Shown piece by piece: positions 4,047 to 51,627 of a stretch of 64,000 nt of DNA. Where the stretch lies: assembly GCA_040264895.1 (NCBI GenBank), contig JBDQHL010000002.1, forward strand, positions 12,342 through 76,341, in the 5' to 3' direction. The DNA is from Bacteroidota bacterium (lineage in GTDB: Bacteria; Bacteroidota; Ignavibacteria; Kapaibacteriales; UBA2268). Under the pieces are notes generated by a model. It ran no database searches. It had not been told where the DNA came from and saw only the letters and a list, made by a program, of their open reading frames with translations. Position 1 is the stretch's first letter. The number at the start of each line of letters is the position of its first letter. The position numbers and the translations under genes were made by a program.

Positions 4047-4627
4047 CTAACAATCGCAATGGCTATTCACATAAGCGATAATATCTTGGAAAAAAGCATT
4101 GAACTCCTCGGTAAACAAGTCGTAAACATCGCGGAGATGATCCACAGCACCACCGAAATTTGATGGGAAACTGGTGCGTTCATCCATTTTGTCGAGCGTG
4201 AATTTCAGCCCTTCTAGGGATTTGTAATTGCTAAGCCAGTCGTATTCTATCATTCGCGGAAGACTGCGTTTTAAGCGAACAGGCATAACTTCCATTCTCT
4301 TTGAAAATATCTTATATACATCCTTTGCATAGTCAGGAAGTGATAGGTCAGAATAGCGTTCCCAATTATTGGCAAGTAGATGATCGTATAGGACATCGAT
4401 AACCACAGGCGAGTACTTCTTGTGGTGTGGTCTCAGTCTTTTAGTTGCCTTCCGAACTATATCGTGCTTATCTGTGTAGGAATCAATTTTCCTGTGTAGC
4501 TCTATTCCAGCATAGATTTCATCAGGCACATGCGTCAACTCCTACATCGTTATGGAATCTGCGATAAAGTTACCTATCAGCAAGTCTTCGTTTTCACAAG
4601 ACAGAAATATATGGGCGAGGTAGTTCA
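4047..4627 (-). pseudogene. acpH: acyl carrier protein phosphodiesterase (AcpH) interrupted by an in-frame TAG
   Basis: ATG at 4627 gives MNYLAHIFLSCENEDLLIGNFIADSITM. TAG follows at 4543-4541, and the same frame continues ELTHVPDEIYAGIELHRKIDSYTDKH... to the stop at 4047. Confidence 0.75.
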
Positions 4628-4686
4628 TAGTATGAGTAGACGATTCTATTAAGAAAAAGATGTATATAGGTTTAGATTGTAGTTTT

Positions 4687-5133
4687 TTATGTGTGAAGGA
4701 TAGATATTATTTCCTTACCAAACTTTTCAATTTTCTTCTCACCCCATCCATGAACTTTAGACAATTCAAAAAAAATTGGACGGTTTCTCTTTTGCAACCG
4801 AATATATATCTGTATTTAATAAAATCATAAAGATTGGAAGTGATTCTTGTTTTGCTTTCTCTTCTCTCCATTTTTTAATTTTTTCTACAACTTCTAACTC
4901 ATCATCATTTAAATCAATTTTTTCATATTTAATCTTTTTAAATGTATCGTACTCTATAGATTCATTTTTTTATCAGTGTATTGAATGATGATTGACCAAT
5001 AATTGATAGAGTCATTAACAAAAATACTTGATATTTCTATTACATGCACAGAATTGAGAAAGTCATTTATTAGGTTTTCATCGTACTCTTTATATAATTC
5101 ATCAGTTCTTATTTTAAAGATTTTTATATTCAT
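4687..5133 (-). pseudogene. HRDC-domain protein broken by two compensating homopolymer frameshifts
   Basis: The ATG at 5133 opens a frame that stops at 4956-4954. The frame changes at the T7 run 4965-4971 and changes back at the A8 run 4768-4775. The corrected read gives ...KKWREEKAKQESLPIFMILLNTDIYSVAKEKPSNFFELSKVHGWGEKKIEKFGKEIISILHT (HRDC-like). Confidence 0.65.
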
Positions 5134-5144
5134 TTTAGTAAAAA

Positions 5145-5723
5145 TTACTCAATAGAAATCTTTTTCGTTTCCCAGCTCCCATCATCTAATCTAAAACTAA
5201 ATATAAGCTCATTTCCATTAAGCGCAAAATCTTTAAATAGAGAATTGGTGCTCAAAACATTGTTTTCCTTTCCTGAAGTCGAAACAACACCTGATTTAAA
5301 ATCAAATGGAAACTTCTTATCCGAATTGTGATTTAAGAAAATCATTTCTGTGTATGTTGTATCAGAGAAATAAAGCAAATAATTCTCATCGGTATCACCC
5401 CATACAAATTGCGAACTGTAAATACGATTTATTTCTGTGCCCGTATCTTTATTAATAAAAACAACTGTTTTATCAAAATCAAATTTTGCTTCTTCAAGAT
5501 TACCTATGGCAAGATTGCATGACCCTCTATTGAAGTAAGCATCTCTATTATTATCATTCAATTCAATAGAGTTAGTGTAATCTTTTACTGCTTCTTCGTA
5601 GTTCTGATTGCTGTGCTTCTCGAAGCCACTATTATAGTATTCTTTAAATGTTTGACCCGTAGCAGCTTGAAGAGCTATTAAAACAACTGTCAAAAAAAAC
5701 AATATTGATCTATTCATTTGCAT
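5145..5723 (-). CDS. secreted TPR-containing hypothetical protein
   Basis: Signal peptide, then TPR-like repeats (YEEAVKDYTNSIELNDNNRDAYFNRGSCNLAIGNLEEAKFDFDKTV). Confidence 0.5.
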   Translation of the reverse strand: MQMNRSILFFLTVVLIALQAATGQTFKEYYNSGFEKHSNQNYEEAVKDYTNSIELNDNNRDAYFNRGSCNLAIGNLEEAKFDFDKTVVFINKDTGTEINRIYSSQFVWGDTDENYLLYFSDTTYTEMIFLNHNSDKKFPFDFKSGVVSTSGKENNVLSTNSLFKDFALNGNELIFSFRLDDGSWETKKISIE

Positions 5724-5834
5724 TAACCTTTTTTTCTAATATCCATTTAGTGTTAATGAAGATAATATCAATTCTATCCAATTACAAACTGAGAGTAGGT
5801 TTGTAAACATTAGATATTCAGTTTAAAAACACTA

Positions 5835-7106
5835 TTACCTTCTCCCCTTCCTACTATTACCGCCCTGTCTTTTTTCTTTATTCTTTCTTCTGTTGGCAGC
5901 GTGTTCTTGCTTGCGTCTATTCTTTTCTTTGTCAAACCTCTTTTTCTCCATAGGAGTCATTGGTTTTTCTGTCTGTGGGTAGGGGTTGTCCTTGATTAAT
6001 TCTAACTTTTGTTTTATTAGCTTTTCTACGTCCTTAACGAATGAGTTTTCTTCTGGTTCGGTGATTGAGATTGCTACACCCTCTTCGCCGGCACGACCAC
6101 AACGCCCTATTCTGTGGACATAAGTCTCTGATTCGTTAGGAATATTGTAGTTAATGACATAGCGAAGTTTGTCAATGTCAATACCACGAGCAGCTATATC
6201 AGTTGCAACTAATACTCTTACTTTACCATCTTTGAAATCGCCGAGTGCTTTTTGTCTCTGGTTTTGGGTTCTGTCGCCATGTATTGCAGCAGCATTTATC
6301 TTTCTTTTTTGGAGGTTACGGACTATCTTGTTTGCACCGTGCTTAGTTCTACAAAACAATAGCACCTGGTCCAAATCTTCGTCCTCCAGTATGTGCAGAA
6401 GCAAGTTCGACTTGGTGCCCCTGTTGGTGTAATAGAGATATTGCTTAACAGTCTCAGCCGCAGAAGAAACAACGTCCACAGCTATTTTAATGGGATTGAT
6501 AAGAATTTTGTTCGATAACTTAACTATACTGTCGGGCATAGTAGCAGAGAAGAAAAGTGATTGTCTTTTCTTAGGTAATAGCTTTATTATCTTCTTAATG
6601 TCGTTGATAAAGCCCATATCTAGCATTCTGTCTGCTTCATCCAACACAAAGTATTCTATGTCTTTTAGCGAGATGAATCCTTGCTCTATTAGGTCGAGCA
6701 AACGCCCTGGAGTAGCAACTAATATATCAACATCTCTTTTCAGGGCTCTAGTTTGCTTCTCTTGCTTTACTCCACCATAGATCACTGTGTTAGTCACATC
6801 AGTGTATTTGGCATAAGTGGTTATACTTTCGCCAATCTGAATAGCAAGCTCACGAGTAGGAGTAACTATCAGAGTAGAAATCTTTCGTTTCCCAGAGCCA
6901 CTTTCTTCCTTATTAGTCAAGTGCTGTATGATTGGTATAGAGAAAGCAGCGGTTTTACCAGTACCAGTTTGCGCACTACCGAGCACGTCCTTTCCTTTCA
7001 GTACAAGTGGTATTGCTTTTTCTTGTATTGAAGTTGGCTCTTCATATTTTTCGTCTTTTAATGCTTTTAATATAGGTGGGATTAAGTTTAGTTCTTCGAA
7101 TTTCAT
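5835..7106 (-). CDS. rhlE: DEAD-box ATP-dependent RNA helicase (RhlE-like) with a basic C-terminal tail
   Basis: Q-motif, AQTGTGKT, DEAD (VLDEADRM), SAT and HRIGRCGRAG motifs are present; the tail is RK-rich. Confidence 0.9.
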   Translation of the reverse strand: MKFEELNLIPPILKALKDEKYEEPTSIQEKAIPLVLKGKDVLGSAQTGTGKTAAFSIPIIQHLTNKEESGSGKRKISTLIVTPTRELAIQIGESITTYAKYTDVTNTVIYGGVKQEKQTRALKRDVDILVATPGRLLDLIEQGFISLKDIEYFVLDEADRMLDMGFINDIKKIIKLLPKKRQSLFFSATMPDSIVKLSNKILINPIKIAVDVVSSAAETVKQYLYYTNRGTKSNLLLHILEDEDLDQVLLFCRTKHGANKIVRNLQKRKINAAAIHGDRTQNQRQKALGDFKDGKVRVLVATDIAARGIDIDKLRYVINYNIPNESETYVHRIGRCGRAGEEGVAISITEPEENSFVKDVEKLIKQKLELIKDNPYPQTEKPMTPMEKKRFDKEKNRRKQEHAANRRKNKEKRQGGNSRKGRR

Positions 7107-7181
7107 TATATGTTTTGTTATTTCGGTGAGTTGTAAAGATGTAATATACGAAATAGTGAACTGAAAGAGATTATGGAATAA

Positions 7182-7802
7182 CTATTTTTTATTAAAACTA
7201 CAAAATACAAAGTTCTGTATGGAACCAGATGGAGTTTTGTGTTCAGTAGTAAAGCACTCTTTTTTATTAAAATATTCACTTAATCTATCCACCATAGTTT
7301 TTTCCGAGTATTGCTTTATCTCTATTCCGCTGCACTTGGTAGGTCCATCTTCGAAGAAGGTCCCAATTACTAAGGTACCTCTTATATTCAGACTGCTGTG
7401 AGCAGTTTCTATATAATTATCTATTTCAGCTGAATCTGTTAAAAAGTGAAATGCTGCACGGTCGTGCCAAAGGTCATATTTTTGTGTTGTGGTAAATTTG
7501 GAAGCATCGGCAACTATCCATTTTACTTCGGTTGCTTTCTCACCCAAACGCTCTTTTGCTCTGTTTATAGCAGCTTCAGAAATATCTAATACCGTGATGT
7601 TACTATATCCCAACTCAAGCAAATTATCTACCAAAAAGCTATCGCCTCCACCAATGTCAATAATACTTGCATTTGTTGAATTGCAATGCTTTTCAATAAG
7701 TTGGAGTGAAGTATCTGGTGTGGGTTGGTACCAACTAACCTCTTCTAACTTTTTCGTTTGGTATATCGTTTCCCAGTGTTTTTTTCTGTCAAATGGATTC
7801 AT
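7182..7802 (-). CDS. class I SAM-dependent methyltransferase
   Basis: Motif I IDIGGGDSFLVDNLLELGY...VLDISEAAI; 206 aa. Confidence 0.8.
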   Translation of the reverse strand: MNPFDRKKHWETIYQTKKLEEVSWYQPTPDTSLQLIEKHCNSTNASIIDIGGGDSFLVDNLLELGYSNITVLDISEAAINRAKERLGEKATEVKWIVADASKFTTTQKYDLWHDRAAFHFLTDSAEIDNYIETAHSSLNIRGTLVIGTFFEDGPTKCSGIEIKQYSEKTMVDRLSEYFNKKECFTTEHKTPSGSIQNFVFCSFNKK

Positions 7803-7820
7803 TTTTTATCTTGCTTTTCT

Positions 7821-9296: not shown

Positions 9297-9427
9297 TTTG
9301 ATTTATTCCTTCTGCATCTTTCGCTACAGTATTTTACATTTTCCCAATCTCTTTCCCATTTCTTTCGCCATGTAAATGGTTTACCACAGGTGGCACATAT
9401 TTTAGTTGGAAGATGTTGCTTTTTCAT
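9293..9427 (-). CDS. DUF2256 zinc-ribbon protein (a photolyase-associated small protein)
   Basis: 44-aa ORF absent from the ORF track: [44 protein letters not shown]. Its TGA overlaps the photolyase ATG (ATGA at 9296-9293). Confidence 0.75.
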
Positions 9428-9436
9428 TTAAGTTTG

Positions 9437-10093
9437 TCAGAAATTCAAGAATGTAATAATATTCAGTTGGTCTCTGCTACCGTTATTAAGAAACTGATTC
9501 ATATAGCCAAGTTCAAATTTTGCAAAGTCATTTAGTTTGTAACCAAGCCCTAAATATGTTCTATTTCTATCAAATAATTCGCTTTCACTATTGATAAATA
9601 TCTCATTATAAGCAGATAGATACCAAGAATTTTCTAATATATCTTTATTCGAAAATGGTATATTTATCGAAAGGAAATAGCGGAATCTAACTCGTAAATC
9701 TGTATCTTCTATCCACCTTTGCTCAAAGCGGTAACGGTGTTGTAACTTCACTATCCCTAATGACTGCCTAGAAATAAACTGTTGGTAAATTCTATGTTCG
9801 TTAATACCAATTTTATCTTCATCATTCACATAGTTCTGACTATTGATGAAACCATAACCAAGCAATAGATTACTATTGTTTTCTGTTAAATTGTAGCCAA
9901 TTCCAGTCCTAAGTAACAACTGCTCCAAATCACCGATACCATTATAATTTCTATACTGTACTTCGTGGTGCAAATTGAAATCAGAATCTATTTTTTTATT
10001 ACCAAAGTAAATAAGCCAGTTTCCTAGGTTGCTTTCTTGTGCTAATGAAGTGAATGGAATAACAAAAAGTAATAAGAATATTATCTTTTTCAT
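9437..10093 (-). CDS. DUF2490-like outer-membrane beta-barrel protein
   Basis: Signal peptide MKKIIFLLLFVIPFTSLAQ, then alternating aromatic beta-strand patterns ending in F. The start is taken at the internal ATG 10093. Confidence 0.6.
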   Translation of the reverse strand: MKKIIFLLLFVIPFTSLAQESNLGNWLIYFGNKKIDSDFNLHHEVQYRNYNGIGDLEQLLLRTGIGYNLTENNSNLLLGYGFINSQNYVNDEDKIGINEHRIYQQFISRQSLGIVKLQHRYRFEQRWIEDTDLRVRFRYFLSINIPFSNKDILENSWYLSAYNEIFINSESELFDRNRTYLGLGYKLNDFAKFELGYMNQFLNNGSRDQLNIITFLNF

Positions 10094-10182: not shown

Positions 10183-11280
10183 TTAAGTAATCGGTCTTAT
10201 CTCCTTCTTCACCTTTTTCCAAAAAGAAAAGAACGATGAATGGTATCCAGTCACCGAGCTAATCCAATCTCTTGGTTCTTCTGCCCCTTTGTAATGTTTG
10301 TTTAGTGGGTGCTCTTTGTATATTATATTCTCTATACCTATTTCACTTTCTAACTCATGAAACTCACCAATAAACACCTCTATTCCATCGATATTAGCAG
10401 CTAAATCTAGAATGAATTGTATATTCTTTTTAGCCAAAGGAAATTTTTTGAAGACTGATGGCTCCAAAAGTAGAACTCGTTGTCTATCTTCTTCTTTTTT
10501 CCATTCAGGGTCTAAGTTGTAATAGTTATAAATCAATGTAGTTTTATTCTTATCTAGCTTTGGTCTTTCAATTTTTGGTAACTCTAAGTTACTCGTAAAT
10601 ACAACTGCTTCTTCTAACTTTTTGGGTATATCCATCTCAGGAAATACGCTATAGTCAACATCTAAGAATGTGCCACTCTGATTGCTGTTAAAAAACTTGT
10701 TTATATTACCTTGATTTGCATAATACTTCTTGTTAGAAAACGCCCCGGCAACCCATTGCCAACTAAGTTGGTTACTTGCTAAATCACCGTCGAGTAAGTG
10801 CAAATACATCCATCTGGCAGGTGTTAACCAATGACATTTTGCAATATTGCAGCATATAGAAGCTACGTACATACGCATGTGATTGTGCATATAGCCATTA
10901 TTGTAAAGTGATTCTATAGCTTCATCTACTACTTTTATTCCCGTGTCTGCTTCGACTATGGCCTTAGGTATATCGTGACTAATTACATCGGATTGTGTGT
11001 TCTTCAAATCAGAATGTATGTCATCTCCTTTTGCTAACCATACTTGTTGCCAGTAGTCCCTCCAAGCTAATTCTTGAACTAATTTTTCTACCTTATACCA
11101 GGGAAGGTCTAAAGAAATTATGTATTCATATACTTGCTTTGTTGAGATTACACCGCGCGAAATATAAGGACTGAGATAGGTTACAGCACCATCACCATAA
11201 TTTCTGGTCTTCGCATATAGAGTTGGGTCTATATCCTCTATTCTTTTGCGAATGCTCTCTATGTCGGTTGGAAAATTTAT
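10183..11280 (-). CDS. photolyase-homology FAD-binding-domain protein with no canonical start codon (ATA at the expected start)
   Basis: The frame is open from 11280. YAKTRNYGDGAVTYLSPYISRGVIS, ELAWRDYWQQV, TGIKVVDEAIESLYNNGYMHNHMRMYVAS and DGDLASNQLSWQWVAG match the photolyase FAD-binding domain. There is no ATG/GTG/TTG between 11280 and the TTG at 11007. Confidence 0.7.
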   Translation of the reverse strand: MNFPTDIESIRKRIEDIDPTLYAKTRNYGDGAVTYLSPYISRGVISTKQVYEYIISLDLPWYKVEKLVQELAWRDYWQQVWLAKGDDIHSDLKNTQSDVISHDIPKAIVEADTGIKVVDEAIESLYNNGYMHNHMRMYVASICCNIAKCHWLTPARWMYLHLLDGDLASNQLSWQWVAGAFSNKKYYANQGNINKFFNSNQSGTFLDVDYSVFPEMDIPKKLEEAVVFTSNLELPKIERPKLDKNKTTLIYNYYNLDPEWKKEEDRQRVLLLEPSVFKKFPLAKKNIQFILDLAANIDGIEVFIGEFHELESEIGIENIIYKEHPLNKHYKGAEEPRDWISSVTGYHSSFFSFWKKVKKEIRPIT

Positions 11281-11546: not shown

Positions 11547-11620
11547 TTTTCTTTTATTCGTTTTTTTAAATTTAATTACGAATAAAAACAATTTTTAGCT
11601 TTAGAAAACTAAATCTTAAA

Positions 11621-12328
11621 CTAAACACTCACACCAAACAAATACCCAACTAAACCAGAAAGGCCCATAGCAAGAGTGCTCCATACAGTAATTCTAATTA
11701 TGGCTTTAGTTACCTTAGCTCCACCAGCTTTGGCAGATGTAGCTCCCAATATCATTAGAAATATAATAGTGAAGCCATAGAGCCAATACTCCATACCGCT
11801 GAGTGGCGCTAACAAAACTACTACCAGTGGTAAAAAACCACCTAAGGTAAATGTTCCACCAGAAGCCAAAGCCGCTTGAATAGGGTTTGCTTGACTCATA
11901 TCCGTTATACCAAGTTCATCCCTTATGTGAGCACTAAGTGCGTCGTGTTCGGTTAGCTCTTTGGCAACTTGTATAGCCGTCTCTTTCTTTAGTCCCCGCT
12001 TTTCGTAAATTTGTGCTAATATGCTCAGCTCTTCTTCTGGCATTTCTTCCAGTTCTAATTTTTCTCTTTCTATATCTGCATTCTCAATATCAGTTTGGGA
12101 ACTAACCGACACGTATTCCCCGGCAGCCATAGATAGTGCTCCTGCTACCAACCCAGCTATTGTAGCCAACACAATTGGTTCAAGAGTCGTGCTTGCTGCT
12201 GCCACACCAATTGCTAAACTTGATACAGATATTATTCCATCATTAGCACCAAGTACGGCTGCCCTGAGCCAATTGCTGCGGTGTATGTAGTGGCTGTCTA
12301 AATAATTGTCTATTGTTATTGGTTCCAT
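11621..12328 (-). CDS. VIT1/CCC1 family iron/manganese transporter
   Basis: WLRAAVLGANDGIISVSSLAIGVAAA, the acidic metal-binding helix ENADIEREKLELEEMPEEE, and C-terminal TM helices. Confidence 0.85.
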   Translation of the reverse strand: MEPITIDNYLDSHYIHRSNWLRAAVLGANDGIISVSSLAIGVAAASTTLEPIVLATIAGLVAGALSMAAGEYVSVSSQTDIENADIEREKLELEEMPEEELSILAQIYEKRGLKKETAIQVAKELTEHDALSAHIRDELGITDMSQANPIQAALASGGTFTLGGFLPLVVVLLAPLSGMEYWLYGFTIIFLMILGATSAKAGGAKVTKAIIRITVWSTLAMGLSGLVGYLFGVSV

Positions 12329-12391: not shown

Positions 12392-13197
12392 TTAATCTAT
12401 CTCATTATTTATATTATACTCTATTTCGCTTATTTCTAATTTCAGCCAGGTCCACTCCCCTGAGTCTAATTTCCATTTGGCTTCACATTCTGTTGGTATT
12501 CTAATGCCATTCCGTGATTCAATTTTATTAGCTATAACTATCCATTTTCAAATTTGTCTCTACCTACTACTTTGAATAGCCCATAAATACTAAGGTCAAT
12601 AGACCAATTAAACGCAGGTGGATAAATAGTAAAATACTGTTCTGCCGTTGCTTCTGACCAGTCTTTCTGGTCTGGAGTCATTTTTAAATTTATTTCCTGA
12701 TCCAAATAAATGTTATCTATGTTGCCTTTGCTCATTGCCCCACTATTCTCTAACCAATTCCTAACAGGTGGTGGTAGTGCATTAAATTTCTCTTGGCTAA
12801 AACTATCGAATTTTGTGGGTGTTTGGTTGGAGTACATAGACTTAATTTCATCTTCGACAATAGCTTTAAAGCTTTGAGTTGAAAAGGCGACAAAGATAGG
12901 AATCAATAAAGCTATGTTAATTACAGTTGCAAATTTGGTATCAGCCCAATGGTTAATTATTAGGAATTGCGATATAATAATTACCAAAAGGCAAACTATC
13001 CACCAGTTATCACTGTCTAATATTAGCATAATCGCAGTTGTTACAAATGAAATTGAAGCTAAAAACCAAACTAAACCAAATCCTTTTGATACTGCTTTTG
13101 ATATATTTTCAAACTCCACAATATCAAACGCTTTCAGAAAGCCAAATAAATGGATTGTACCGTGAAGTAGTATTAATATTATAAGAACACAATACAT
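12392..13197 (-). pseudogene. DUF6544-like membrane protein with an internal deletion and frame change
   Basis: The 219-aa N-terminal ORF ends ...VVGRDKFENG at TAG 12540-12538. A second frame (12547-12392) reads KWIVIANKIESRNGIRIPTECEAKWKLDSGEWTWLKLEISEIEYNINNEID, which looks like the family C-terminus. Confidence 0.55.
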
Positions 13198-13230
13198 ATG
13201 TTTAATATTAAAAAGTTAAATCAATTATTT

Positions 13231-13452
13231 TTATAGTTTGTCAAACTCTGTTTTCTTCTCTTTCATCCAGTTATTTACTTCTTCTTCAGTCATATTTCTC
13301 ATCTTATTCATAGCTTCTAAGTGAGCCTTATCATTCTGTTTCATCATTTCCATACCGTGTTGTTGGCTCTGTTAAGCTATCTCTTGGAAGGTTTCTGCTT
13401 TGAATACAGTATCACAAGCCCCGCCTAACTGATTGCAAGTCATTTCTTTCAT
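13231..13452 (-). pseudogene. DUF1059 small protein with an in-frame TAA
   Basis: An AGGAG-like SD precedes MKEMTCNQLGGACDTVFKAETFQEIA. TAA (13374-13372) follows, then QSQQHGMEMMKQNDKAHLEAMNKMRNMTEEEVNNWMKEKKTEFDKL in the same frame. Confidence 0.65.
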
Positions 13453-13558: not shown

Positions 13559-14286
13559 ATGAAATACATATACACAATAATTCTTGCGATTGCTTTTTTG
13601 GCTTGCTCCGATGATGATACCACTTCACCCGAAGATAAAATCTGCATTCCCGAAGGCTTGCAAGAAAATCTAATAGCGTTTTATCCATTTTCGGATGGTA
13701 GCATAGAAAACACAGTTGACGGCAGTACTCCAGATAATATGAACAATGCTACACCAGGTGAAGACCGTGATGGTAATGCAAACTGTGCATTCAGCTTTAG
13801 CAAGGCTGACAGTAGCCACTTAGATGATAAAAATCCGAAATTCCTTGATGACAGAAGGTAATATTCTGTTTCTCTTTGGTATTATCACACAGTAAATAAT
13901 GACGGTGAATACGAAGGACTAGTACACAGGGGAGATGCAAACACCAGAACAAATAAGCTTGATATTGGTATTTACGATGTAAACAAAGCTACGTTCAGTG
14001 ATTTCTTTTCCGTATGGGACACAACTGATACTAATGAACTAAACAAATGGTACCACTTGGTTGCTATATGCGATTATGACAGTAAGACAATGAGACTTTA
14101 TCAAAATGGTGTGCTAATGGACTCTTACACAAGTGTGACTTTAGATGTAATAAACCCAAGCAACGGTGGCACCTGTTCATAGGTAAGGACTTTACTGGTA
14201 GAATAGACGACATAGCTATATTCGACAAAGTGTTGTAGAGTGTAGAAATTCAAGAACTGTACGAATCAGACGCTTGTTGTGAGTGA
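13559..14286 (+). pseudogene. LamG/concanavalin-like lipoprotein with two in-frame stops and one frameshift
   Basis: Lipobox LACS. TAA at 13859-13861 is followed in frame by YSVSLWYYH...WYHLVAICDYDSKTMRLYQNGVLMD. The frame changes near 14165-14180, giving LFIGKDFTGRIDDIAIFDKVL. TAG at 14236-14238 is followed by SVEIQELYESDACCE. Confidence 0.7.
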
Positions 14287-24637: not shown

Positions 24638-24862
24638 CTAACCACTCTCATCTAGTATTTCTAAATCACTTCCTGAGATTGAATCCTTTTTAACCTTCTT
24701 ACTTTGGTTTTTCCTCAGAAATTCTTGTTGTGCAGGCGTAAAAAGATTTTCTTTATCAATATAATTATTAATAACTTTTATAACAGATAGTAAGAACTCT
24801 TCATCGTCAGTATCTTTAACTATACTTATAATTTCTTCCTTTATTCTATCTACTTCAGTCAT
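24638..24862 (-). CDS. hypothetical small protein
   Basis: 74-aa ORF convergent with the exonuclease gene; no family recognised. Confidence 0.4.
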   Translation of the reverse strand: MTEVDRIKEEIISIVKDTDDEEFLLSVIKVINNYIDKENLFTPAQQEFLRKNQSKKVKKDSISGSDLEILDESG

Positions 24863-26869: not shown

Positions 26870-27969
26870 TTACTTAATTTTGGTAAGGATGATAAAAGAT
26901 TCTGTTGTTACATCAAAGTCGTCATCTTCTTTTTTCATTTGCAAATCAAAAGTTCCACTGGAAGATGTCTCGAATATGCCTTCTATCGTAACTCTTGCGT
27001 TAAACCCATTGTAAAATTGAAAGTCCTCTATAAATTCATTAGAGTTAATTACTTGCTTATAATCTAAATTATCGTCAAACGCCTCTATCATAACAACACC
27101 TGACGATGGTAAACCGTTTAATCTTATTGAAGGTCTTCTCTCCGTTCCAGTTGGAGCGAGTATCAAAATCCCCTTAATTTTATATACACTATTCGCATCA
27201 AGAGTAGCTGTAATATCAGTGATATTTACATAAGTTGTTGTACTTACCGTCTGGTCAGATGACTTGGTTAATACCGTTACCTCTGGCAGTCTGCGCCACC
27301 GCCGCCGCCACCAGTGATTATCTTACCAGTGTTATCTAGTTGTATATTTTGTGTGCCGCCGCCAGCTAAACCGGGCATAGTAATGCCAGTTGTTTTAGCT
27401 TCTAATGCAGTAGCGCCATCTATTGCTATCACTCCCTTGTTATTAACTTCATCATAACTAAGAGTCATTTCCGTACCACCAGTCATACCACCATCTGGCC
27501 CTACGTGAAGTGTATTACTCCCTACGTAAGCATCTTCCCACCTATTATCATCTTGACCAAGTGAGCTACTAGTGCTTGGTGGGCTGAAGTCCCCAGAATT
27601 ATTAAAGACAGTCGTGCTACCTTGCATCATCAATAGTTGGTCAACTCTCTGTTGTGAAAACAAAGTGCCACCAACATATATATCTACGACCACATTCGTA
27701 TTTATAGAGCTAGCACTAACGCTAGACAAATCTCCATTTGCACCAAGATGGTCAGCTAGTTCTACTATTACTATGCCATTATCATTGGGCGTCAAATTAT
27801 TGGTTTCACTTATGAAAAGTGTTGAGTTAGTAGAATAGTCTTTAATTTCAGCTCTCACACTTTGTGAAGAAGTATTTGTAGTGTAATAAGCAACCTTAAT
27901 AGGTTCTAATGATAGTGATGTAGATACTGAAAACAATATAGTTATAACTATTAGTAAAAGCTTTTTCAT
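26870..27969 (-). pseudogene. secreted tail-fibre-like protein split by a frameshift next to a GGC/GGT tract
   Basis: The 230-aa ORF (signal peptide; LGQDDNRWEDAYVGSNTLHVG) ends GGGGGGADCQR-TAA at 27277. A second frame is open from about 27322 down to 26870 (EVTVLTKSSDQTVSTTTYVNITDITATLDANSVYKIKG...) and has no ATG/GTG before the TTG at 27166. Confidence 0.5.
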
Positions 27970-35846: not shown

Positions 35847-36058
35847 AGTTATAAACATACTAAATTTTTATTTGATGATAAAAAGTCTTCTACTTTAGTC
35901 TCATTAGCCTTCATAAATTCTCCTATTTGATATATAACGATGATAAAATAGAGATTTTTTCACTTTTACCCAAAATTATTTATGATTCTAAAGATTCAAG
36001 AATTGGAAATTGAAGTTATTTCCACTTTTATAATATAATAACGGTTCTCTGTTTTGAG

Positions 36059-36138
36059 ATGTATTCATATCGACTACGCTCTGTGTAAACAATACATATC
36101 TACTGTGCTAATTTCAAGCATTTCGACAAGCTCAATGC
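36059..36138 (+). repeat. two tandem hairpin repeats with a TCGAC-N2-3-GCTC loop
   Basis: ATGTATT-catATCGACtacGCTCtgtgtaaac-AATACAT (36059-36097) and GCATT-TCGACaaGCTC-AATGC (36118-36138). Confidence 0.8.
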
Positions 36139-36141
36139 ACA

Positions 36142-36333
36142 TCAATTACCCCCTTCCTCATTCTCCACCTGGCCCTTACGTTGGTATGAGCGGTAAAGTA
36201 GAAAAAGGTACAGAATAGTTACTAAGGTGGAAGGTAGCCAGCCGAAGCCAACTACATAGTAGAAGAAGAAATAGCTACCAAGACCAAGCAAGGTAAGTGC
36301 AGCAAATTTCTTTGGGTTTGTGTCTAATTTCAT
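36142..36333 (-). CDS. small two-TM membrane protein
   Basis: 63 aa. Its ATG overlaps the stop of the HD gene (ATGA at 36333-36330). Confidence 0.5.
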   Translation of the reverse strand: MKLDTNPKKFAALTLLGLGSYFFFYYVVGFGWLPSTLVTILYLFLLYRSYQRKGQVENEEGGN

Positions 36334-38646: not shown

Positions 38647-39279
38647 TTAGTTTGTCCAGTCTTTATCAACTATGTTTATCCTGCCGGGATAATTGATATT
38701 CCCCAACGGAGTTTTAACAGTTGGTCTGGCATCTAATTTTAAATTTGCGGCCGATCCGTTTTGCCCACCAATGGCAAGCGCCAGGTTTATAAGGTCACTG
38801 TATCCGTCATTACCAAAGAATTCGTATAAATCTATATTCATTGTCAGGGGTATATTAGTCGCGTTCCCAGTGCCAGGAATTATCAAGTCGTTACTAATAT
38901 CACCAGCTATAGTTTGCTTCCCATCTATGAAAAGCCTCCAGTCCAATCCAGTCAGAGTAGCTGATGATTGCTTAGTACCACCAGTGCCATCATTGGGATT
39001 ACGTGCATCTAAGTTGAGCACAAACTGAGCAGGCAATCTCTTGTCCGAAAATGCCTTAGTTAGTCTAATGCCATCCATAACTGATAGGTCACTAACAGAC
39101 TTTACATTACTTAAGTTTACTCCTGCTACGACAAAGTTGTTTACATTGTCTAACTTAAATTCTAATCTCTGTAAGTTAGCTATAGAGTCTTTTATCTGGT
39201 TCAGCGTCTTGCAACTACTTAGCATAAGCGATGCAATAAGTATTGCCAAAACTGATATTTTCAACCTGTTAATTTTCAC
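38647..39279 (-). CDS. lipoprotein, LEA type-2 (NDR1/HIN1-like) fold candidate
   Basis: Lipobox LMLSSC followed by a beta-rich pattern (FKLDNVNNFVVAGVNLS...WRLFIDGKQTIAGDI). Confidence 0.5.
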   Translation of the reverse strand: MKINRLKISVLAILIASLMLSSCKTLNQIKDSIANLQRLEFKLDNVNNFVVAGVNLSNVKSVSDLSVMDGIRLTKAFSDKRLPAQFVLNLDARNPNDGTGGTKQSSATLTGLDWRLFIDGKQTIAGDISNDLIIPGTGNATNIPLTMNIDLYEFFGNDGYSDLINLALAIGGQNGSAANLKLDARPTVKTPLGNINYPGRINIVDKDWTN

Positions 39280-39746
39280 TATACGTTTAGTCCAGCAGTT
39301 TCTAGTACATCATTCGAGGACTGACCTGCACTGTCTAAAGCACTCGACAAAACCGATACTTTTTTCTGTGCTATATATAAATCAGTTAATAGCTTAACTT
39401 GTGCTACTAATAATTTTTCTTCAATCGGTTTACTCAAGAAGTCATCTGCACCAGCATCTATTGACTTCAGCTGATTAGCTGTATCACTAAGAGCTGTAAC
39501 AATAACAATAGGAATATCCTTATTATTATCATTTTGTCTTAAATTTCTAACAGTTTCATATCCATCCATTCTTGGCATCATTACATCTAGTACTATTGCG
39601 TAAGGTTTTTTCTCCTTAACTACTTCCAGACACTCAATACCATCATGTGCTATCATTACTTCATAGCCGTTACTTTCTAGATATCTTTTTAACAATTTTG
39701 TTGTGATTTTATTATCATCAACTACCAATATTGGTTTTGTACTTAT
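39279..39746 (-). CDS. stand-alone response-regulator receiver domain with ATA at the expected start position
   Basis: (I)STKPILVVDDNK...DVMMPRMDG...TALSD...K. The only canonical start is the TTG at 39728, inside beta-strand 1. ATA at 39746-39744 lies 7 nt after an AAGG SD. Confidence 0.8.
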   Translation of the reverse strand: MSTKPILVVDDNKITTKLLKRYLESNGYEVMIAHDGIECLEVVKEKKPYAIVLDVMMPRMDGYETVRNLRQNDNNKDIPIVIVTALSDTANQLKSIDAGADDFLSKPIEEKLLVAQVKLLTDLYIAQKKVSVLSSALDSAGQSSNDVLETAGLNV

Positions 39747-39863
39747 AAGTTAACCTTAATTGTTGAATTTTTATTACAAATTTATTAAATAAAGCGTTAC
39801 CTGATGCTATAAATCTAACTATTTTTTAACACAGTTACAACTACTCCAAGCATTTTAAAACTA

Positions 39864-40487
39864 TCATAATCTATTATCCATTATACAATAGTCGCCATCC
39901 TCAATGCCATTGTGGTCAATAGTAAATCCTACGTATGGTCCAAAGTGCTTATATTTCCCGTAAGTTAATAATAATTCACCGTTTACATAACAATCTACAA
40001 CATTTTTTGTGCGAACAACCTTAATTTTATTCCACTGGCCTTTTGGGTTAATAACATTTTTCTGTTGTTTCCATTTTCTAATTTCTTGAGCTTTGCCGCT
40101 CCTTTTACCATTCATATACCTATACTGATTTCCTGAAACTACAATTCTCAAATGCTTATCTGTGTCTGGGTTCCTACTGAATATAAGGCCATATCCCCAA
40201 GTTTCTATACCAGCAGTTTGTTTAATGTCAAACTCAATAATGTAATTCGTGTCTTTTTCTAATAGGGTATGCATAAAAGACCAAGCACTAGATTTCTTTT
40301 CCTTTCTAATATTTTTAATTTTGTAGACACCATTCTTAATTTCAGCATCCAAAAATTTAGATTTACCTACAAACCATTCATTAGGATTACCATCGCTAAA
40401 GTTATCTTCAAATATTACTTTCTGGTTTGTTTGTGCTGATAAACTGATTGTTAGAAGGGCAAATATTGCTAAGACTAAAGATTTCAT
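39864..40487 (-). CDS. secreted DUF1080 (3-keto-disaccharide hydrolase-like / concanavalin fold) protein
   Basis: Signal peptide MKSLVLAIFALLTISLSAQ followed by VIFEDNFSDGNPNEW...W; the start is taken at ATG 40487. Confidence 0.6.
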   Translation of the reverse strand: MKSLVLAIFALLTISLSAQTNQKVIFEDNFSDGNPNEWFVGKSKFLDAEIKNGVYKIKNIRKEKKSSAWSFMHTLLEKDTNYIIEFDIKQTAGIETWGYGLIFSRNPDTDKHLRIVVSGNQYRYMNGKRSGKAQEIRKWKQQKNVINPKGQWNKIKVVRTKNVVDCYVNGELLLTYGKYKHFGPYVGFTIDHNGIEDGDYCIMDNRL

Positions 40488-40604
40488 ATTTCTACTGAAA
40501 TTAATTTTAATTATATAATGATTTGCAAAAGTAAGGATAAAAAAAAGAGTAGCAACCAATTGGTTACTACTCTTATAAAATTAATTGCTGAATGAATCGA
40601 ATTG

Positions 40605-41897: not shown

Positions 41898-44805
41898 ATG
41901 TCATACAAAAGCAAAGAATACAAAAGGATACACACAGTACTGTGGTTATTTTATGGGTTTTTTCTTCTAATAATTTTAGCATCCGCCTATATTTCTATAT
42001 CTGAATTACAGAGAGCCGATATATTGACTCATAATTTCAAATCAATGAACTAAGTTTACTATGCATTCGATGAGTTGTCAGAAGATACTCTTAGCTATGA
42101 TTATAGAAAACAAATACTTAATAAGGTTAAGAATAGCTTAGAATCAATAGACGAAATAAATTATGAAAAAAATCAGATTCTCTACGAGAATATCAAGCTT
42201 CACATAGGTGAGTACGAGGAATTTTTAAAATACAAATGAAAACCACAATACAAATTTAGAAAGCCAAATTAAAGAACGGATTAAAAAGTTTGTAGAGAAT
42301 ATATATAGTGATGAAGTTGAAAATTTGAATCAAACTAAAAAAATAGATTTAATTCTGATCTTAGTGGTTGTGCTTACATTGACTATTGTACTATTGTTAG
42401 TGGTATTCCCAGTAATAAAAAAATCAGACAGACTCACAACTAAGCTAAGAGCAACAAGCAACGAGAAAGAAGTTGCCTTGATGAATCTAAAAAAGCAAAC
42501 TCACGAATTATTTCTTAGAGAAGAAAGATTTAGCTCAATTGCCGAGCTTTCTCCAGTTGGATTGTACATGACAGATGCAGATGGTAGCTGCGAATATGTG
42601 AATGAACGATATAGTAAATTAATAGGATTAAGCATTGAAGAATGCATGGGGGAAGGGTGGAAGGATGGACTACACCCAGACGATAAGGTAAGAATATTCA
42701 AAACGTGGTATGAATCTGTAGCAAACAACGACCCAGTTTATATCAATGAATATAGGACTGCTAAAACAAATAGAGATATTTCTGTCAAAGCTAAAGCACT
42801 TAGAACTAAAGATGGAGAGATATATGCATTTTTAGGAGTGATAGAACCTGTACTGATTGAATTAATAAATAAGGATGGAAGTGTAAAAAAGGTAGAATTC
42901 AGATACAGAAATACCAAAAGTACTGAAATATGGGGGTTAATTGATAAAACTGAAATATTAAGATTAGAAGCGGAAAAAGAAAAAATGTCTGAAATGTATG
43001 ATCTGATACTTAATGCAACTAAAATTGGTGTTTGGAACTGGGATTCAAATAATAATAAAGCGACTTGGAATGACTCACTATTTGACTTACTTGGTAGAGA
43101 AAGAACATCTGAAAATCTTTTTAAAACCTATATGGAAAGAGTTCATGAGGATGACAAACAAACAGTTTTAGATAATAACATCAAATTAATGAAAGGCGTA
43201 TTAGATGAGGTTGTATCTAATTTTAAATTTATTAGACCAGACGGTGAACTAATATACTTAAGGTCTATTGCAAAAGTTGAGCGAGACAATGAGGGTAAAA
43301 CCGAGAGAATGTATGGAATAAATATTGATATTGCTGAAGAGAAACAGTATGAGAAGAATCTAGTAGTTGCGAAAGAAAAGGCTGATGCCGCTAATAATGC
43401 CAAATCAATCTTTTTAGCTAATATGAGCCACGAAATAAGAACACCTATGAACGCCATACTTGGGTTTGCTGAAATTCTGAAAAACAAAAATGAATCTCCT
43501 GAGTTAGAGAATTATATAGATGGAATTACCAAAGGTGGAAACACATTATTGTCTCTGATAAATGACATATCAGATATATCGAAGATAGAAGCAAATAAGA
43601 TGACTCTAAAAAATTCAGTAACAAACTTTGAATTGTTACTTGATGATATAGATAAGATATTCACGATTGTAGCTAACAAGAAAGGTATTAAGTTTAGTAT
43701 AGAAATGCTACCTACCACCCCAAAATATATGCTGTTAGATCAAACGAAAGTGAAACAAATATTAATAAATCTTATAGGTAATGCTATTAAGTTCACTGAG
43801 ATGGGTAGTGTAAAATTAGACATAAATTATAAACAAAATCCATCTGATGTTTCTAAAATGGATTTATATCTTGAAGTATCTGATACAGGCAAAGGTATAG
43901 AAGAAAAATATTTGGATAAGATATTTGATCCATTTACACAAGAAGATAACAGAGATAACAAGGAGTATGAAGGAACTGGATTAGGGCTTTCTATAGTTAA
44001 AAAGCTTACAGAACTATATGATGGTGATACTAAAGTAGATACAGAAGTTGGAGTGGGAAGTACGTTCAAAGTAAGGCTAAATGGTATTTCAATTTCAATT
44101 CTAAAGCCAAAAAAGTTCACAAACTTAGAACAACACCAAATTGACAATTTAGATTTTAATAATTTGAACATACTTTTTGCGGAAGACATAGAGTCAAATA
44201 GACAGGTTATTAAAGGTTTGCTTTCTAATTCAAATCTAAATCTATTTTTCGCAGAAAATGGAGAAGAAGCCCTGAAAATTGCAAGGGAGAATGAGATTTC
44301 TTTAGGTTTCATTGATCTACATATGCCAGTAATGGATGGAAGAACAATGGCAAGAATATGGAAGGAAGATGATAGTTTAAATAAAATTCCAATTGTAGCC
44401 TTAACAGCAGAAATGAGAGATACAAATTCCGATTCTGATGATCTATTTTCAGATTATTTGACAAAACCAGTCTCAGGTATTGACCTATACAGAGCTATAG
44501 CCAAATTTGTTAGTCCTGATTCGGATATTAATTTGAGTAATACTGGAAACAAAACAATAATTATCAAATTAGACGATAATATCATAGATGAAATAAAGGA
44601 AAAGAATCTTTATGGTATTGTTCAAGAGTCAATTAAAATAGTAAACACAAAAGAACTAAGATATTTGATTACAGAATTGCAAACTATCTCAGACTAAAAT
44701 GATGATGACTATTTGAAATCAATTACTAATGAATTAGAGTTAGCTCTTAATTCATTTAACATGGATAAGATAAAATCTTCCCTATTGTTAATCACCAACA
44801 ATTAA
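41898..44805 (+). pseudogene. hybrid sensor histidine kinase (TM, sensor, TM, 2xPAS, HisKA, HATPase, REC) with two in-frame TAA codons and one frameshift
   Basis: The ATG at 41898 gives a TM helix, then TAA at 42051-42053, then VYYAFDEL... in the same frame. The frame changes at 42229-42239 into the 790-aa ORF (H-box SHEIRTPMNAILGF, GTGLGLSIV, REC DLHMPVMDG). TAA at 44695-44697 is followed in frame by NDDDYLKSITNELELALNSFNMDKIKSSLLLITNN. Confidence 0.75.
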
Positions 44806-46235: not shown

Positions 46236-46236
46236 G

Positions 46237-48435: not shown

Positions 48436-49439
48436 TGAAAAAACTAATATTACTTTTAGCTATTTCTGTATTCCTGACATCGTGCTTCGACGAAGACATA
48501 GCTGTTACCCCTTTGGATAGGGGCGACGTTGTTTCGAATCAAGTCGAAATGATGGGCAAATATGAGAATCAAGTATATTTTGATTTAGGTAGTAACACTA
48601 CTGTGAGCACTAATAAATATGGTGAATGGGATTTAGGATTCCAGTCATATGATAGCTATCATATAAGATTAAACTCTGCTAGAAATATGGCAGTCCAAGA
48701 TTTAGGAAAAGTTGACTTTGCTTCAGTTAATGCAGAGTCAGATGAGATAGAATACAAGAGAGATGTACCAAGTGGTAACAAAGATTCAATGGTTATTGGT
48801 AAGTGGTGGTTGGAAGAAAACGGAGAACTAATAAGTAAAGAACATGTTTATATAGTAGACAGAAAAAGAAGCCATGATCGTACCAGAGGTGGGTTAAGAA
48901 AGATTAAAATTCTATCTGCAAATGAAAATAAATTTGTATTTATATTCGCAGAGTTAAATTCGTCTGAGTCTGACACAGTAGTAGTACCAAGAAATGAAAT
49001 GTATAATTTTATTACTGTATCACTTGATGGAAAAGGAAGTGTTACAAATTTGGAACCTAGGTCAGATGAATGGGACATAGTATTTACAAAATACACAGAA
49101 CTTTTCGATGTGCCAGGCTTTGAAGTTTACCCTGTCACGGGAGCGTTAATTAATACCAGATATTGCGAGGTAGTAGAAGCAGATAGTACAATTTCTTTTG
49201 ATGAATTGACAAGCGAATCTATTGGGGAATATGTATTAACTAATAAACGCGATGAAATCGGTTGGGATTGGAAACAAGTTGATATCAACACTGGTGTATA
49301 TACTGTCAATCCATTAAAGAAATATATTATTAGCGATACAGAAGGTTTTTATTATAAACTTAGATTTATAGGCTTCCAAAAAATTGTGGACGGAAAAGCA
49401 GAAAAGGGTTACCCCGAATTTGAAATTAAATTATTATAA
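48435..49439 (+). CDS. hmuY: HmuY-family lipoprotein
   Basis: Lipobox LTSC, plus GEWDLGFQS, WDIVFTKYTELF and GFYYKLRFIGF patterns. Confidence 0.7.
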   Translation: MKKLILLLAISVFLTSCFDEDIAVTPLDRGDVVSNQVEMMGKYENQVYFDLGSNTTVSTNKYGEWDLGFQSYDSYHIRLNSARNMAVQDLGKVDFASVNAESDEIEYKRDVPSGNKDSMVIGKWWLEENGELISKEHVYIVDRKRSHDRTRGGLRKIKILSANENKFVFIFAELNSSESDTVVVPRNEMYNFITVSLDGKGSVTNLEPRSDEWDIVFTKYTELFDVPGFEVYPVTGALINTRYCEVVEADSTISFDELTSESIGEYVLTNKRDEIGWDWKQVDINTGVYTVNPLKKYIISDTEGFYYKLRFIGFQKIVDGKAEKGYPEFEIKLL

Positions 49440-49455
49440 AACGATTGATTAGTTT

Positions 49456-50493
49456 ATGTCAGTTACTAAATTGAAAGAACAATACGAAGAAGTAAAAGCA
49501 AACAACCCAGGCCTAAGAATTAAGGAATATGCTGATTTAATCGGTATAACTGAATTAGAATTATTAGCTTCGGGTCTTCATGATAAAGCAACTAAATTAG
49601 ATGATAAACCAGTTGAGATTTACAAACACTTGCCTGAGTTAGGTAGGTTAATGGTACTGACTAGAAATGAGTCTGCAGTTCACGAGCGAAAAGGTGTCTT
49701 CAATGAAGTACAAATGCATGGGACAATGGGTCTAGTAGTTGGTTCTGATATTGATTTACGTATATTCTTTGATGATTGGAAGTACGTGTACAATGTAGAA
49801 AAAGAACACAGAGGCAAACTACTTAGGTCTATTCAGTTCTTCAACAAGTATGGTAAAGCTGCTCAGAAAGTATATTTGACTGACGATAGCAATGAAGAAG
49901 CATACAGAATGCTGATTGATGGATTCAAAACTGAAAATACTGAAATACCCGTTGTTGAAAAAGGTGCGAAACCAAAGAACTATAATAATGTTGAAGATAT
50001 AGACTTTGATAAGGCAATTAGAGATTGGAACAAATTGGACGACACTCACAACTTCCAAGCTATATTGGATAGCCAGAATATAAGAAGGCTGGACCTAATG
50101 AAGCGAGCTCCAGATGAACTCGCTTGTCGTGTTCCTAACGATGCTGTAATTGATATTCTATACTCAGCAGTTGAGACAGAAACTCCAATAATGGCTTTTG
50201 TTGCTAATGATGATTTGATTCAGATTCATACAGGTGAGGTTCACAATATAAGACTTATTGAAAACTGGACTAATGTAATGGACCCAGATTTCAACTTACA
50301 CCTTCGCAATGATTTAGTTGCAGAATCGTATGTAGTCAAAAAACCAGGTGATGCTGGTGGTACAATTACATCGCTCGAATTATACGATATGGATGACGAA
50401 CTTGCTATAACTTTCTTCGGTAAGAGAAAGCCAGGTATTCCTGAGTTAGAGAGCTGGAGAGAGATAATTGCTAAATTGGAAAAAGCAGATTAA
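49456..50493 (+). CDS. hemS: hemin-degrading/transport factor, ChuS/HemS/HmuS family
   Basis: 345 aa with two-repeat architecture (RLMVLTRNESAVHERKGVF... / IMAFVANDDLIQIHTGEV...). Confidence 0.85.
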   Translation: MSVTKLKEQYEEVKANNPGLRIKEYADLIGITELELLASGLHDKATKLDDKPVEIYKHLPELGRLMVLTRNESAVHERKGVFNEVQMHGTMGLVVGSDIDLRIFFDDWKYVYNVEKEHRGKLLRSIQFFNKYGKAAQKVYLTDDSNEEAYRMLIDGFKTENTEIPVVEKGAKPKNYNNVEDIDFDKAIRDWNKLDDTHNFQAILDSQNIRRLDLMKRAPDELACRVPNDAVIDILYSAVETETPIMAFVANDDLIQIHTGEVHNIRLIENWTNVMDPDFNLHLRNDLVAESYVVKKPGDAGGTITSLELYDMDDELAITFFGKRKPGIPELESWREIIAKLEKAD

Positions 50494-50495
50494 TT

Positions 50496-50831
50496 ATGAG
50501 TAAGATTGATAAAATAGTAAATGTTTTGAAAGAGAGGTGGGGTGTTAGCTCTGCATTCGATGTAGTTGTTATTCTTATTGTATTTGCTATAACTGGAATG
50601 TCGTCATTATACGTCAGCAAATTCGTATTTGAGGCACTTAACCTAACTTCTGATGACCCATTTTGGCTAAGAGCAATTGTTTATATATTTACTGTTTTGC
50701 CTGCTTACCAAGTTATACTTTTCATTGTAGGTACTTTGCTCGGACAGGGCAAGTTCGTTCGCAGCTTCCTTAAGATGATGTTTGGTCGCCTTACTTTTTG
50801 GAAGAAGAAGAAAAAGACAAAAGAAATTTAA
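50496..50831 (+). CDS. small two-TM membrane protein, last gene of the heme locus
   Basis: 111 aa with two hydrophobic helices; only a 2-nt gap after hemS. Confidence 0.5.
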   Translation: MSKIDKIVNVLKERWGVSSAFDVVVILIVFAITGMSSLYVSKFVFEALNLTSDDPFWLRAIVYIFTVLPAYQVILFIVGTLLGQGKFVRSFLKMMFGRLTFWKKKKKTKEI

Positions 50832-50895
50832 ACTTCCCATTTGCAAAAAAATCATTAATTTGTAGCTACACTTCATAATACAACAGGAAAAAGCT

Positions 50896-51627
50896 ATGAA
50901 TAAACTATACTACTTAGGACTTGCATTTCTTGCAACAATATTACTATTATCATGCTCTGATGATGATAATGGAGCCAGCCCAGATGACAATGACACAGAG
51001 ACTTTTAGTTTTCCTTTGGAAAGGGGAAACGAGTGGGTTTACGAAGAAGTTTTCTATGATAATGAAGGGAATGAGGGAGATAAATCCGGGAATCAAAGGA
51101 TTGTTTCCGTGGGAGAAACTCTTACACTTTTTGGAAAGGGTTGTTATATGATTACCACGAGTAATGTTCTTGCAGGAGCCGACGGTTCCACTTCAAAGAA
51201 ATATGCTTATTCAGATGAAGAGGGTTACTATGAATATGATCCTGCTTTTTTTGATATGTTAGAAGAAGCAGACCCCAATGTAGAGAGGGGATGGATAAAA
51301 CTATTTGGAATTGGTCAAGAAACCTAGACTGCTTATAGCTATCAGGGAACAGCAGGTTTATTAGACTCACACATAGTTGACGTAGCAGATGTGAGGGTTA
51401 AATACGAAAGAACTACAGAGCTAATTTCATCTGATAGTACCACTATTACTGTTAAGATATTTACTGTTACTACTTACTATGAACTAGAAACTGCTGAGAA
51501 TTATTACTAAAACTCTGAAACTAGAACTTACTATGTGCACGAAGAATATGGTGTTTTATCTGAAAGAGAAGTGCAAACTGGTGGCAATGGCGGCTGGGGT
51601 TGGAAATTAAAAAGTAAGAATTACTAA
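50896..51627 (+). pseudogene. lipoprotein (paralogue of 51687-52451) with two in-frame stops
   Basis: Lipobox LLSCSDDD. TAG at 51325-51327 and TAA at 51508-51510 interrupt a single frame that continues to TAA 51625-51627. The 244 codons compare with 254 aa in the neighbouring paralogue. Confidence 0.6.

Follow-up and report, generated by a model that had tools for sequence, protein, structure and literature searches.

The stretch of DNA analysed here, referred to throughout as the window, comprises 64,000 nucleotides of an uncultured Bacteroidota bacterium (GenBank assembly GCA_040264895.1, contig JBDQHL010000002.1, positions 12,342 to 76,341 of the forward strand). It has a G+C content of about 35% and carries about 58 plausible genes, and about ten non-essential genes in it are broken: surface lipoproteins, a sensor kinase, a response regulator, an acyl-carrier-protein phosphodiesterase (AcpH) and small genes without known function are among those affected. 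The lesions are real, fixed and lineage-specific, their mutational spectrum is mixed, and the core genes around them are intact. A reading of the letters alone, the original prediction, had listed 16 lesions, of which 15 hold, one of them with its coordinate a base off; the sixteenth, an ATA codon at 11278-11280, is not a lesion. To that list we add three: a deletion in a PAS core of the kinase, a shortfall in a gene near 27 kb and the truncation of a 3keto-disac_hyd gene. The eight in-frame stops that had been claimed are all present, seven exactly where they had been placed and the first at 4542-4544, not at 4541-4543.

Lesions were read by six-frame translation, the read-through (reconstructed) proteins were assigned by Pfam, and full-length orthologues were sought by an exhaustive HMMER search. 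Pfam recognised AcpH, HRDC, FAD_binding_7, DUF6544/DUF6920, DUF1059 (weakly), Laminin_G_3, Response_reg and a hybrid kinase of PAS-PAS-HisKA-HATPase-REC architecture among the reconstructions, and two of the read-through proteins matched no Pfam family. The HMMER search returned full-length orthologues for the LamG gene (85%) and a lipoprotein gene (75%), and the close orthologues of the broken genes are labelled “Chlorobiota bacterium” in NCBI. The window's GroEL belongs to a 90% cluster whose members carry the names Candidatus Kapaibacterium or Ignavibacteriota. From these LamG and lipoprotein orthologues, together with 90%-cluster members of neighbouring genes, we retrieved the syntenic loci of two relatives: sister A (L104, L105, L186, L190, L192 and L196, of which L196 is NCBI GCA_046290495.1) and relative B (L194, NCBI GCA_034670025.1). 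Core proteins of the window are mostly 92-99% identical to theirs. A metagenome scan added a locus, L112, with an AcpH relative at 93% amino-acid identity. A scan of species-representative genomes with a conserved photolyase-related protein of the window gave no match above 67% identity, so that neither the species nor its near relatives are among those representatives, and the loci obtained held no orthologue of the broken genes; sequence searches of the PDB with AcpH and DUF1059 gave no usable homologue, and a search of the literature on Kapabacteria and pseudogenes turned up nothing relevant.

The first broken gene is an AcpH pseudogene (PF04336; 4047-4628, minus strand), in which an in-frame TAG at 4542-4544 takes the place of residue 29 of 193. 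A full-length Pfam match spans the stop, and the codon is AAG (Lys) in L112 and Lys in most other homologues, which makes the change an A>T transversion. Next to it, a small HRDC-domain gene (4687-5133, minus strand) carries two single-nucleotide indels of opposite sign, both in homopolymers (A8 at 4768-4775 and T7 at 4965-4971 of the plus strand), so that the reading passes from frame 2 to frame 1 and back to frame 2. The Pfam match (positions 2-68 of 68) is unbroken only when read across the second frameshift; the first is suggested by the open reading frame structure alone.

Three further genes lie between 12 and 15 kb. A DUF6544/DUF6920 pseudogene (12392-13197, minus strand) has lost about 292 nucleotides through one out-of-frame internal deletion with its junction at about 12541-12547. 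Its N-terminal piece covers profile positions 2-81 and its C-terminal piece 178-222 of 222, so that roughly 82-177 are gone; the relatives have intact proteins of 365-368 residues, and in tblastn query residues 1-219 fall in one frame and 317-367 in another. An alternative description as three small lesions, suggested by the DNA alignment, was replaced by this single deletion after comparison at the protein level. The adjoining DUF1059-like small gene (13231-13452, minus strand) is interrupted by a TAA at 13372-13374; in relative B it is intact (L194, 1253-1474; 79% amino-acid identity) and reads CAA (Gln) at the stop, a C>T transition. On the plus strand follows a LamG (Laminin_G_3) lipoprotein pseudogene (13559-14286), whose 242-residue orthologues are intact in sister A (85%) and in relative B (81%). 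It carries a TAA at 13859-13861, where both relatives have CAA (C>T transition), a single-nucleotide deletion at about 14170 (GGCCA>GGCA) and a TAG at 14236-14238, which is aligned to ACC/ACT within a locally diverged patch from which no ancestral codon can be inferred.

A gene for a secreted protein without known family (26870-27969, minus strand), which we call the 27-kb gene, is frameshifted at 27289-27310, directly after a GGT/GGC repeat, and is also some 650 central residues shorter than its homologue of 1040 residues in sister A. Its two halves match that one protein, with query residues 1-191 and 844-891 in frame -2 and 900-1040 in frame -1.

Near 40 kb, a response regulator gene (39279-39746, minus strand) has lost its start codon, which reads ATA at 39744-39746. 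Its sister counterpart (L196, L197) encodes 155 residues and begins ATG AGT ACA AAA CCA, as against ATA AGT ACA AAA CCA in the window. The upstream region is conserved with the sister and the start change is a G>A transition; the next candidate start, a TTG at 39728, would give a predicted protein six residues shorter. The neighbouring 3keto-disac_hyd gene (39864-40559, minus strand) is cut to about the first 197 of 702 residues, with the breakpoint of a rearrangement or a deletion within 39860-39900. The sister A orthologue, of 702 residues, combines 3keto-disac_hyd, PD40 and OmpA domains, the latter two of which are missing from the window copy. Homology to the sister's 3keto-disac_hyd gene stops at 39901, and homology to the upstream region of its response regulator gene begins at 39859. 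Synteny breaks in this interval, 39859-39901: a block of response regulator, 210-residue protein, CNNM and HD genes, which in the sister adjoins LamG and DUF6544 and follows HTH and Peptidase_S24 genes, has HPPD and the truncated 3keto-disac_hyd gene as its neighbours in the window. The HTH and Peptidase_S24 genes are missing from the window.

A further broken gene is a hybrid sensor histidine kinase pseudogene (41898-44805, plus strand), intact in sister A with 1055 residues. Its first stop, a TAA at 42051-42053, is aligned to GAG (Glu) in sister A and is probably a G>T transversion that passed through GAA. One extra base at about 42229-42232 shifts a frame that is single in sister A. At 42846/42847 an in-frame deletion of 261 nucleotides removes 87 codons of a PAS core; these residues are present both in sister A and in P0152, a fragment of the sister's kinase that is cut at both ends and is uninformative on the terminal lesions. 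The last stop, a TAA at 44695-44697, is aligned to AAA (Lys), an A>T transversion; it is premature because alignment with the sister continues through the 34 codons beyond it until the sister gene itself ends, and Pfam finds no domain in this 34-codon tail. The first transmembrane segment, the sensor and one PAS core are lost. Finally, a lipoprotein gene without known family, downstream of a haem-uptake cluster (50896-51627, plus strand), carries a TAG at 51325-51327 (TGG>TAG, a G>A transition) and a TAA at 51508-51510, the latter aligned to ACC in a diverged patch with no inferable ancestral codon. Its sister A orthologue is intact (244 residues, 75%) and stands in the same gene order. The lesions split or remove conserved domains in AcpH, HRDC, DUF6544, the kinase and 3keto-disac_hyd.

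The original prediction had named two lost starts, each ATG>ATA. The one at 39744-39746 is real, the sister having ATG; the one at 11278-11280 is widely shared and ancestral. It belongs to the photolyase-related FAD_binding_7 gene (10183-11280, minus strand), which is undamaged. An upstream TIGR03643/DUF2805 gene ends in TAA at 11277-11279, and the ATA overlaps this stop, forming ATAA with an overlap of four nucleotides; no ATG, GTG or TTG lies ahead of the conserved N-terminus. Relative B has the same ATAA and no canonical start (L194, 6587-6590), and six distant genomes (L020, L015, L034, L048, L092 and L084) read ATAG at that column, again with no canonical start. A canonical ATGA stands there in L045, L029 and L051; many Flavobacteriaceae have TAAATG. 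With 20 amino-acid against 32 synonymous lineage-specific changes in the window, the gene looks as if it were under purifying selection in the window lineage. The ATA is thus an inherited and apparently functional arrangement, since it is shared with relative B and distant genomes and the gene seems to be under purifying selection. Overlapping start/stop junctions of the ATGA type serve translational coupling by termination-reinitiation, and the junction at 11277-11280 resembles them in its four-nucleotide stop/start overlap and in a position kept across many genomes. It is unlike them in that the window, relative B and at least six distant genomes read ATA, which is not a standard initiator. 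We infer that translation may begin at this ATA by termination-reinitiation. We note that where the upstream stop is TAG, a return to ATG would abolish that stop.

Since the source organism is uncultured, and since two of the indels sit in homopolymers, errors of sequencing, assembly or consensus in a metagenome-assembled genome might have produced the apparent damage. The same region was located in other assemblies via exact-protein look-ups: in ENA (ERZ27296340 and ERZ27296361, both MEGAHIT contigs), in JGI (3300066022, where it lies on one contig of 2.25 Mb, and 3300044676, 3300044723, 3300044724 and 3300021958) and in Logan (SRR25455802, SRR25452727, SRR7132117 and SRR26991416). Two of these, SRR7132117 and 3300021958, are metagenomes of San Francisco Bay pelagic water (PMC10720571). 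The loci are 99.95-100% identical to the window, and the alignment is free of gaps in all except one Logan contig (L097, from SRR25452727). Each listed stop, frameshift and deletion is invariant in at least ten independent metagenome assemblies that are at least 99.95% identical to the window; the AcpH lesion, for example, is the same in L005-L007 and L009. Differences from the window number 0-7 per 2-21 kb, with a maximum of four single-nucleotide polymorphisms and three single-nucleotide deletions in one Logan contig, and none of the polymorphisms or single-nucleotide indels among assemblies coincides with a lesion. The population is almost clonal across at least ten runs or projects (window compared with L001-L014 and L095-L103).

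Assembly error is excluded because the lesions recur in near-identical assemblies from separate runs, with the same bases across pipelines (MEGAHIT k141, JGI, Logan), runs and projects; moreover, read errors do not typically turn sense codons into stops or remove 261 to about 292 nucleotides. We therefore give this explanation next to no credence, and the claim that the lesions are true mutations stands. A further point for error is L097, which differs from the window by three single-nucleotide deletions in A runs, at 40539, 43608 and 46262. Besides splitting the kinase further (into 379 and 354 residues), these would strike the genes for 3keto-disac_hyd and the TonB receptor; either the assembly is wrong at these sites or L097 may come from a strain with added lesions. 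Phase variation by simple-sequence repeats was considered as well and rejected: the A8, T7 and GGT/GGC tracts have the same length in all assemblies covering them, so that tract length does not vary in the population.

Comparison with the relatives places the damage in the window lineage. Intact copies exist in close relatives for nine of the ten broken genes (for the 27-kb gene by way of the 1040-residue homologue), and alignment to them gives sense codons or an intact frame where the window has its lesions. Among about 45 shared orthologues, nine genes are broken solely in the window and none solely in the relatives; as a reciprocal control, all of the roughly 45 genes that are intact in the window and have an orthologue in the relatives' loci are also intact there. 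As had been claimed, it is accessory, weakly constrained genes that are hit and the core that is spared: groESL, hslVU, mnmA, icd, folC and similar genes keep their full length and share 80-99% identity with those of the relatives. The broken genes are those that evolve faster, with a median identity to the relatives of 78.6%, as against 92.1% for intact genes (one-sided Mann-Whitney p = 0.003), a lower identity that is partly a result of the decay itself.

Some accessory genes have gone altogether. The cNMP-binding and 205-residue genes between DUF2805 and VIT1 are present in both relatives and absent from the window; compared with sister A, the window further lacks a set of four small genes located between sulP and folC as well as a 488-residue gene located between folC and icd, the direction of some of these presence/absence differences resting on two relatives. 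At 11591-11621, 54068-54173 and 55399-55457 (compared with L104, L194, L196 and L186) the absence is complete and leaves no remnant. The gaps checked for remnants of genes, three in the 10-kb downstream flank and one in the window at 35882-36330, held none. The DUF2805-VIT1 block of the relatives additionally carries a rhomboid gene or one of 174 residues. In another part of the comparison, the sister locus L192 (1778-2298) has a ParE-toxin gene beside a partner of 77 residues, and the window at 24638-24862 has a 74-residue gene, 40% identical to that partner, with no toxin.

The spectrum of the point lesions bears on how they arose. At the resolved sites the aligned sense codons are AAG, CAA, CAA, GAG, AAA and TGG, together with ATG for the lost start, and the nine point lesions comprise four G:C>A:T transitions, three transversions and two stops without an inferable ancestor. 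The original prediction had taken all of them to be compatible with G:C>A:T transitions; this fails for three of the seven with an inferable ancestor, which are transversions (AcpH AAG>TAG, kinase AAA>TAA and kinase GAG/GAA>TAA). It had also remarked that none of the eight stops is TGA, a count that holds and that is not significant (p = 0.13). It had raised a mutator or deaminase history, taken here as a burst of G:C>A:T changes, for example following loss of ung or mutY or exposure to a deaminase toxin, with selection purging the hits in core genes. Four of the seven resolved point lesions do fit such a burst, three of the six resolved nonsense changes are transitions where 12.5% would be expected under equal rates (p = 0.03), and a gene for a CDA-fold deaminase lies directly upstream of the window. 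The three transversions (A>T twice and G>T once) do not fit, and about half of all the lesions are indels, deletions or a rearrangement, which are beyond a deaminase. Nor is the synonymous branch of the window longer than that of relative B: in six genes, a small sample, the window has about as many synonymous changes of its own as relative B has (among them 27 vs 37, 32 vs 29, 38 vs 32 and 31 vs 31). Bacteria commonly show a G:C>A:T mutational bias, and the excess of transitions matches it. The upstream deaminase is weakly TadA-like and below all curated cut-offs. Taken together, the mixed spectrum and the ordinary synonymous branch make a mutator or deaminase history highly improbable. As to the gene itself, it encodes a CDA-fold zinc deaminase of 199 residues (Pfam dCMP_cyt_deam_1 / MafB19-deam) about 0.5 kb upstream of the window (L005, 19176-19775), falls below all NCBIfam cut-offs and shows no link to the lesions.

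Coding-like sequence carries on in frame past every one of the stops, as it would if TAA and TAG were read as sense, and two of the frameshifts lie in A8 and T7 runs, at which slippage during transcription could rescue a minor share of the product; the genes might in that case still be functional. The intact genes of the window end in TAA (38), TAG (9) or TGA (5; n = 52), so that TAA and TAG together close 47 of 52, and recoding is excluded because all three codons terminate intact genes. The residues aligned to the stops (Lys, Gln, Gln, Thr, Glu, Lys, Trp and Thr) vary by site and yield no single meaning, no core gene of the window has an internal stop, and at the resolved sites the relatives have sense codons at the same columns and not shared stops. 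The window contains no tRNA gene, the orthologues are each read in one frame and lack a slippery site, and the same genes bear deletions of 261 to about 292 nucleotides. That the stops or shifts are read through to functional products is thus hardly credible. Programmed ribosomal frameshifting, as a separate candidate, was rejected: LamG, the kinase, DUF6544 and the 27-kb gene all have orthologues encoded in one frame. The likeness to known reassignments of stop codons (genetic codes 4 and 25, TAG-recoded phages) is confined to the coding-like sequence beyond in-frame stops; here TAA and TAG are both hit and yet are both the main terminators, the aligned residues differ, and the housekeeping genes are clean.

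In our view the damage very probably reflects ordinary neutral decay of weakly constrained accessory genes in one uncultured, estuarine, Kapaibacterium-like lineage, and the ongoing gene decay that had been proposed is borne out by lesions that are real, lineage-specific and placed in weakly constrained genes whose counterparts in the relatives are intact. In a gene that selection no longer maintains, disabling mutations of any sort would be able to fix, whether a nonsense change of either class (transition or transversion), a single-nucleotide indel in a homopolymer or elsewhere, or the loss of a start; the dead gene would then gather further hits freely, and deletions would afterwards take parts of genes and lastly whole genes. 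The window can be read as a series of such stages. Loss of a start only is seen in the response regulator gene and a single stop in AcpH and DUF1059; LamG, the lipoprotein gene, HRDC and the kinase have multiple hits; internal deletion or truncation affects DUF6544, the PAS core of the kinase, the 27-kb gene and 3keto-disac_hyd; and accessory genes kept by both relatives are completely absent. Selection would have been relaxed, with drift in the nearly clonal population fixing the lesions, and a bottleneck or a change of niche could be the cause.

The timing can be bracketed to some extent. In three-taxon counts, the lineage-specific changes in LamG (amino-acid/synonymous) are 13/27 in the window, 12/30 in sister A and 21/37 in relative B, and those in DUF6544 are 7/13 in the window and 6/12 in relative B. 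With no excess of amino-acid changes in either gene, the inactivations would be recent in comparison with the divergence from the relatives; they are older than the present clonal population.

Several observations weigh against neutral decay as we have described it, or against parts of its inventory. The same unraised amino-acid changes in LamG and DUF6544 mean that relaxed selection is not visible as a raised ratio of nonsynonymous to synonymous rates (dN/dS), and three lesions in LamG accompanied by few missense changes are slightly above the neutral expectation (rough Poisson p of about 0.2). An orthologue of the HRDC gene was not found in any fetched locus. In the 27-kb gene the frameshift appears to be supported, while the size of the deletion is less certain, at 42-54% identity and with a paralogue in the sister. 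Finally, about 12 kb of flanking sequence from the same genome contain no broken gene, the comparison covering the 64-kb window and these flanks.

That genes were hit more than once and show little added missense change would also suit adaptive loss, in which surface proteins and a sensor were inactivated because this was favoured, for example in escape from phages or grazers or through genome streamlining. Several of the broken genes do encode exported or surface proteins or sensors, and the population is nearly clonal, as it would be following a sweep. Cytoplasmic genes without an obvious surface link (AcpH, HRDC and DUF1059) are broken too, however, and neutrality likewise predicts that a dead gene will collect several hits. 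One clonal genome cannot separate adaptive from neutral loss, and on balance we regard adaptive loss as unlikely.

Neutral decay, as the preferred reading, has consequences for annotation and possibly for the history of the lineage. Gene callers report the fragments as separate small proteins (100, 143, 163, 219, 230 and 738 residues), and the number of hypothetical proteins counted for this organism is thereby inflated. The region offers a clean case, with fixed and reproducible lesions, two intact outgroup relatives and all stages of decay side by side. It becomes more interesting only if the decay is pervasive genome-wide: if lesions were equally dense throughout the 2.25 Mb of the genome, this planktonic lineage would offer a natural setting in which successive steps of genome reduction could be dated and put in order in bacteria other than the classical host-restricted pathogens and symbionts. 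We raise tentatively, as less probable than its contrary, the idea that a nearly clonal pelagic lineage has been caught at an early, pseudogene-rich stage of genome reduction, after a recent severe bottleneck or with incipient dependence on a partner or host. We know of no such transition described in this group and habitat.

The kind of event is already known; this instance is new. Pseudogenes accumulate in bacteria that have recently passed through a bottleneck or become restricted in niche, among them Sodalis glossinidius, Mycobacterium leprae, Yersinia pestis and Salmonella Typhi. The present organism differs from these in being uncultured, in living in pelagic estuarine water and in having no known host, and no insertion sequence (IS) elements were seen in the window, a further difference from those examples. 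It resembles them in combining nonsense changes with small indels, a lost start and deletions, in showing several hits per dead gene, and likewise in a spared core, intact relatives and low population diversity. A deletional bias and a pathway from pseudogene to gene loss in the reduction of bacterial genomes have reportedly been described by Mira, Ochman and Moran in 2001 and by Kuo and Ochman in 2010. Unlike in those studies, a single 64-kb region is compared here; like the pathway that they are said to describe, the window displays every stage, from point lesion through internal deletion to the complete absence of a gene.

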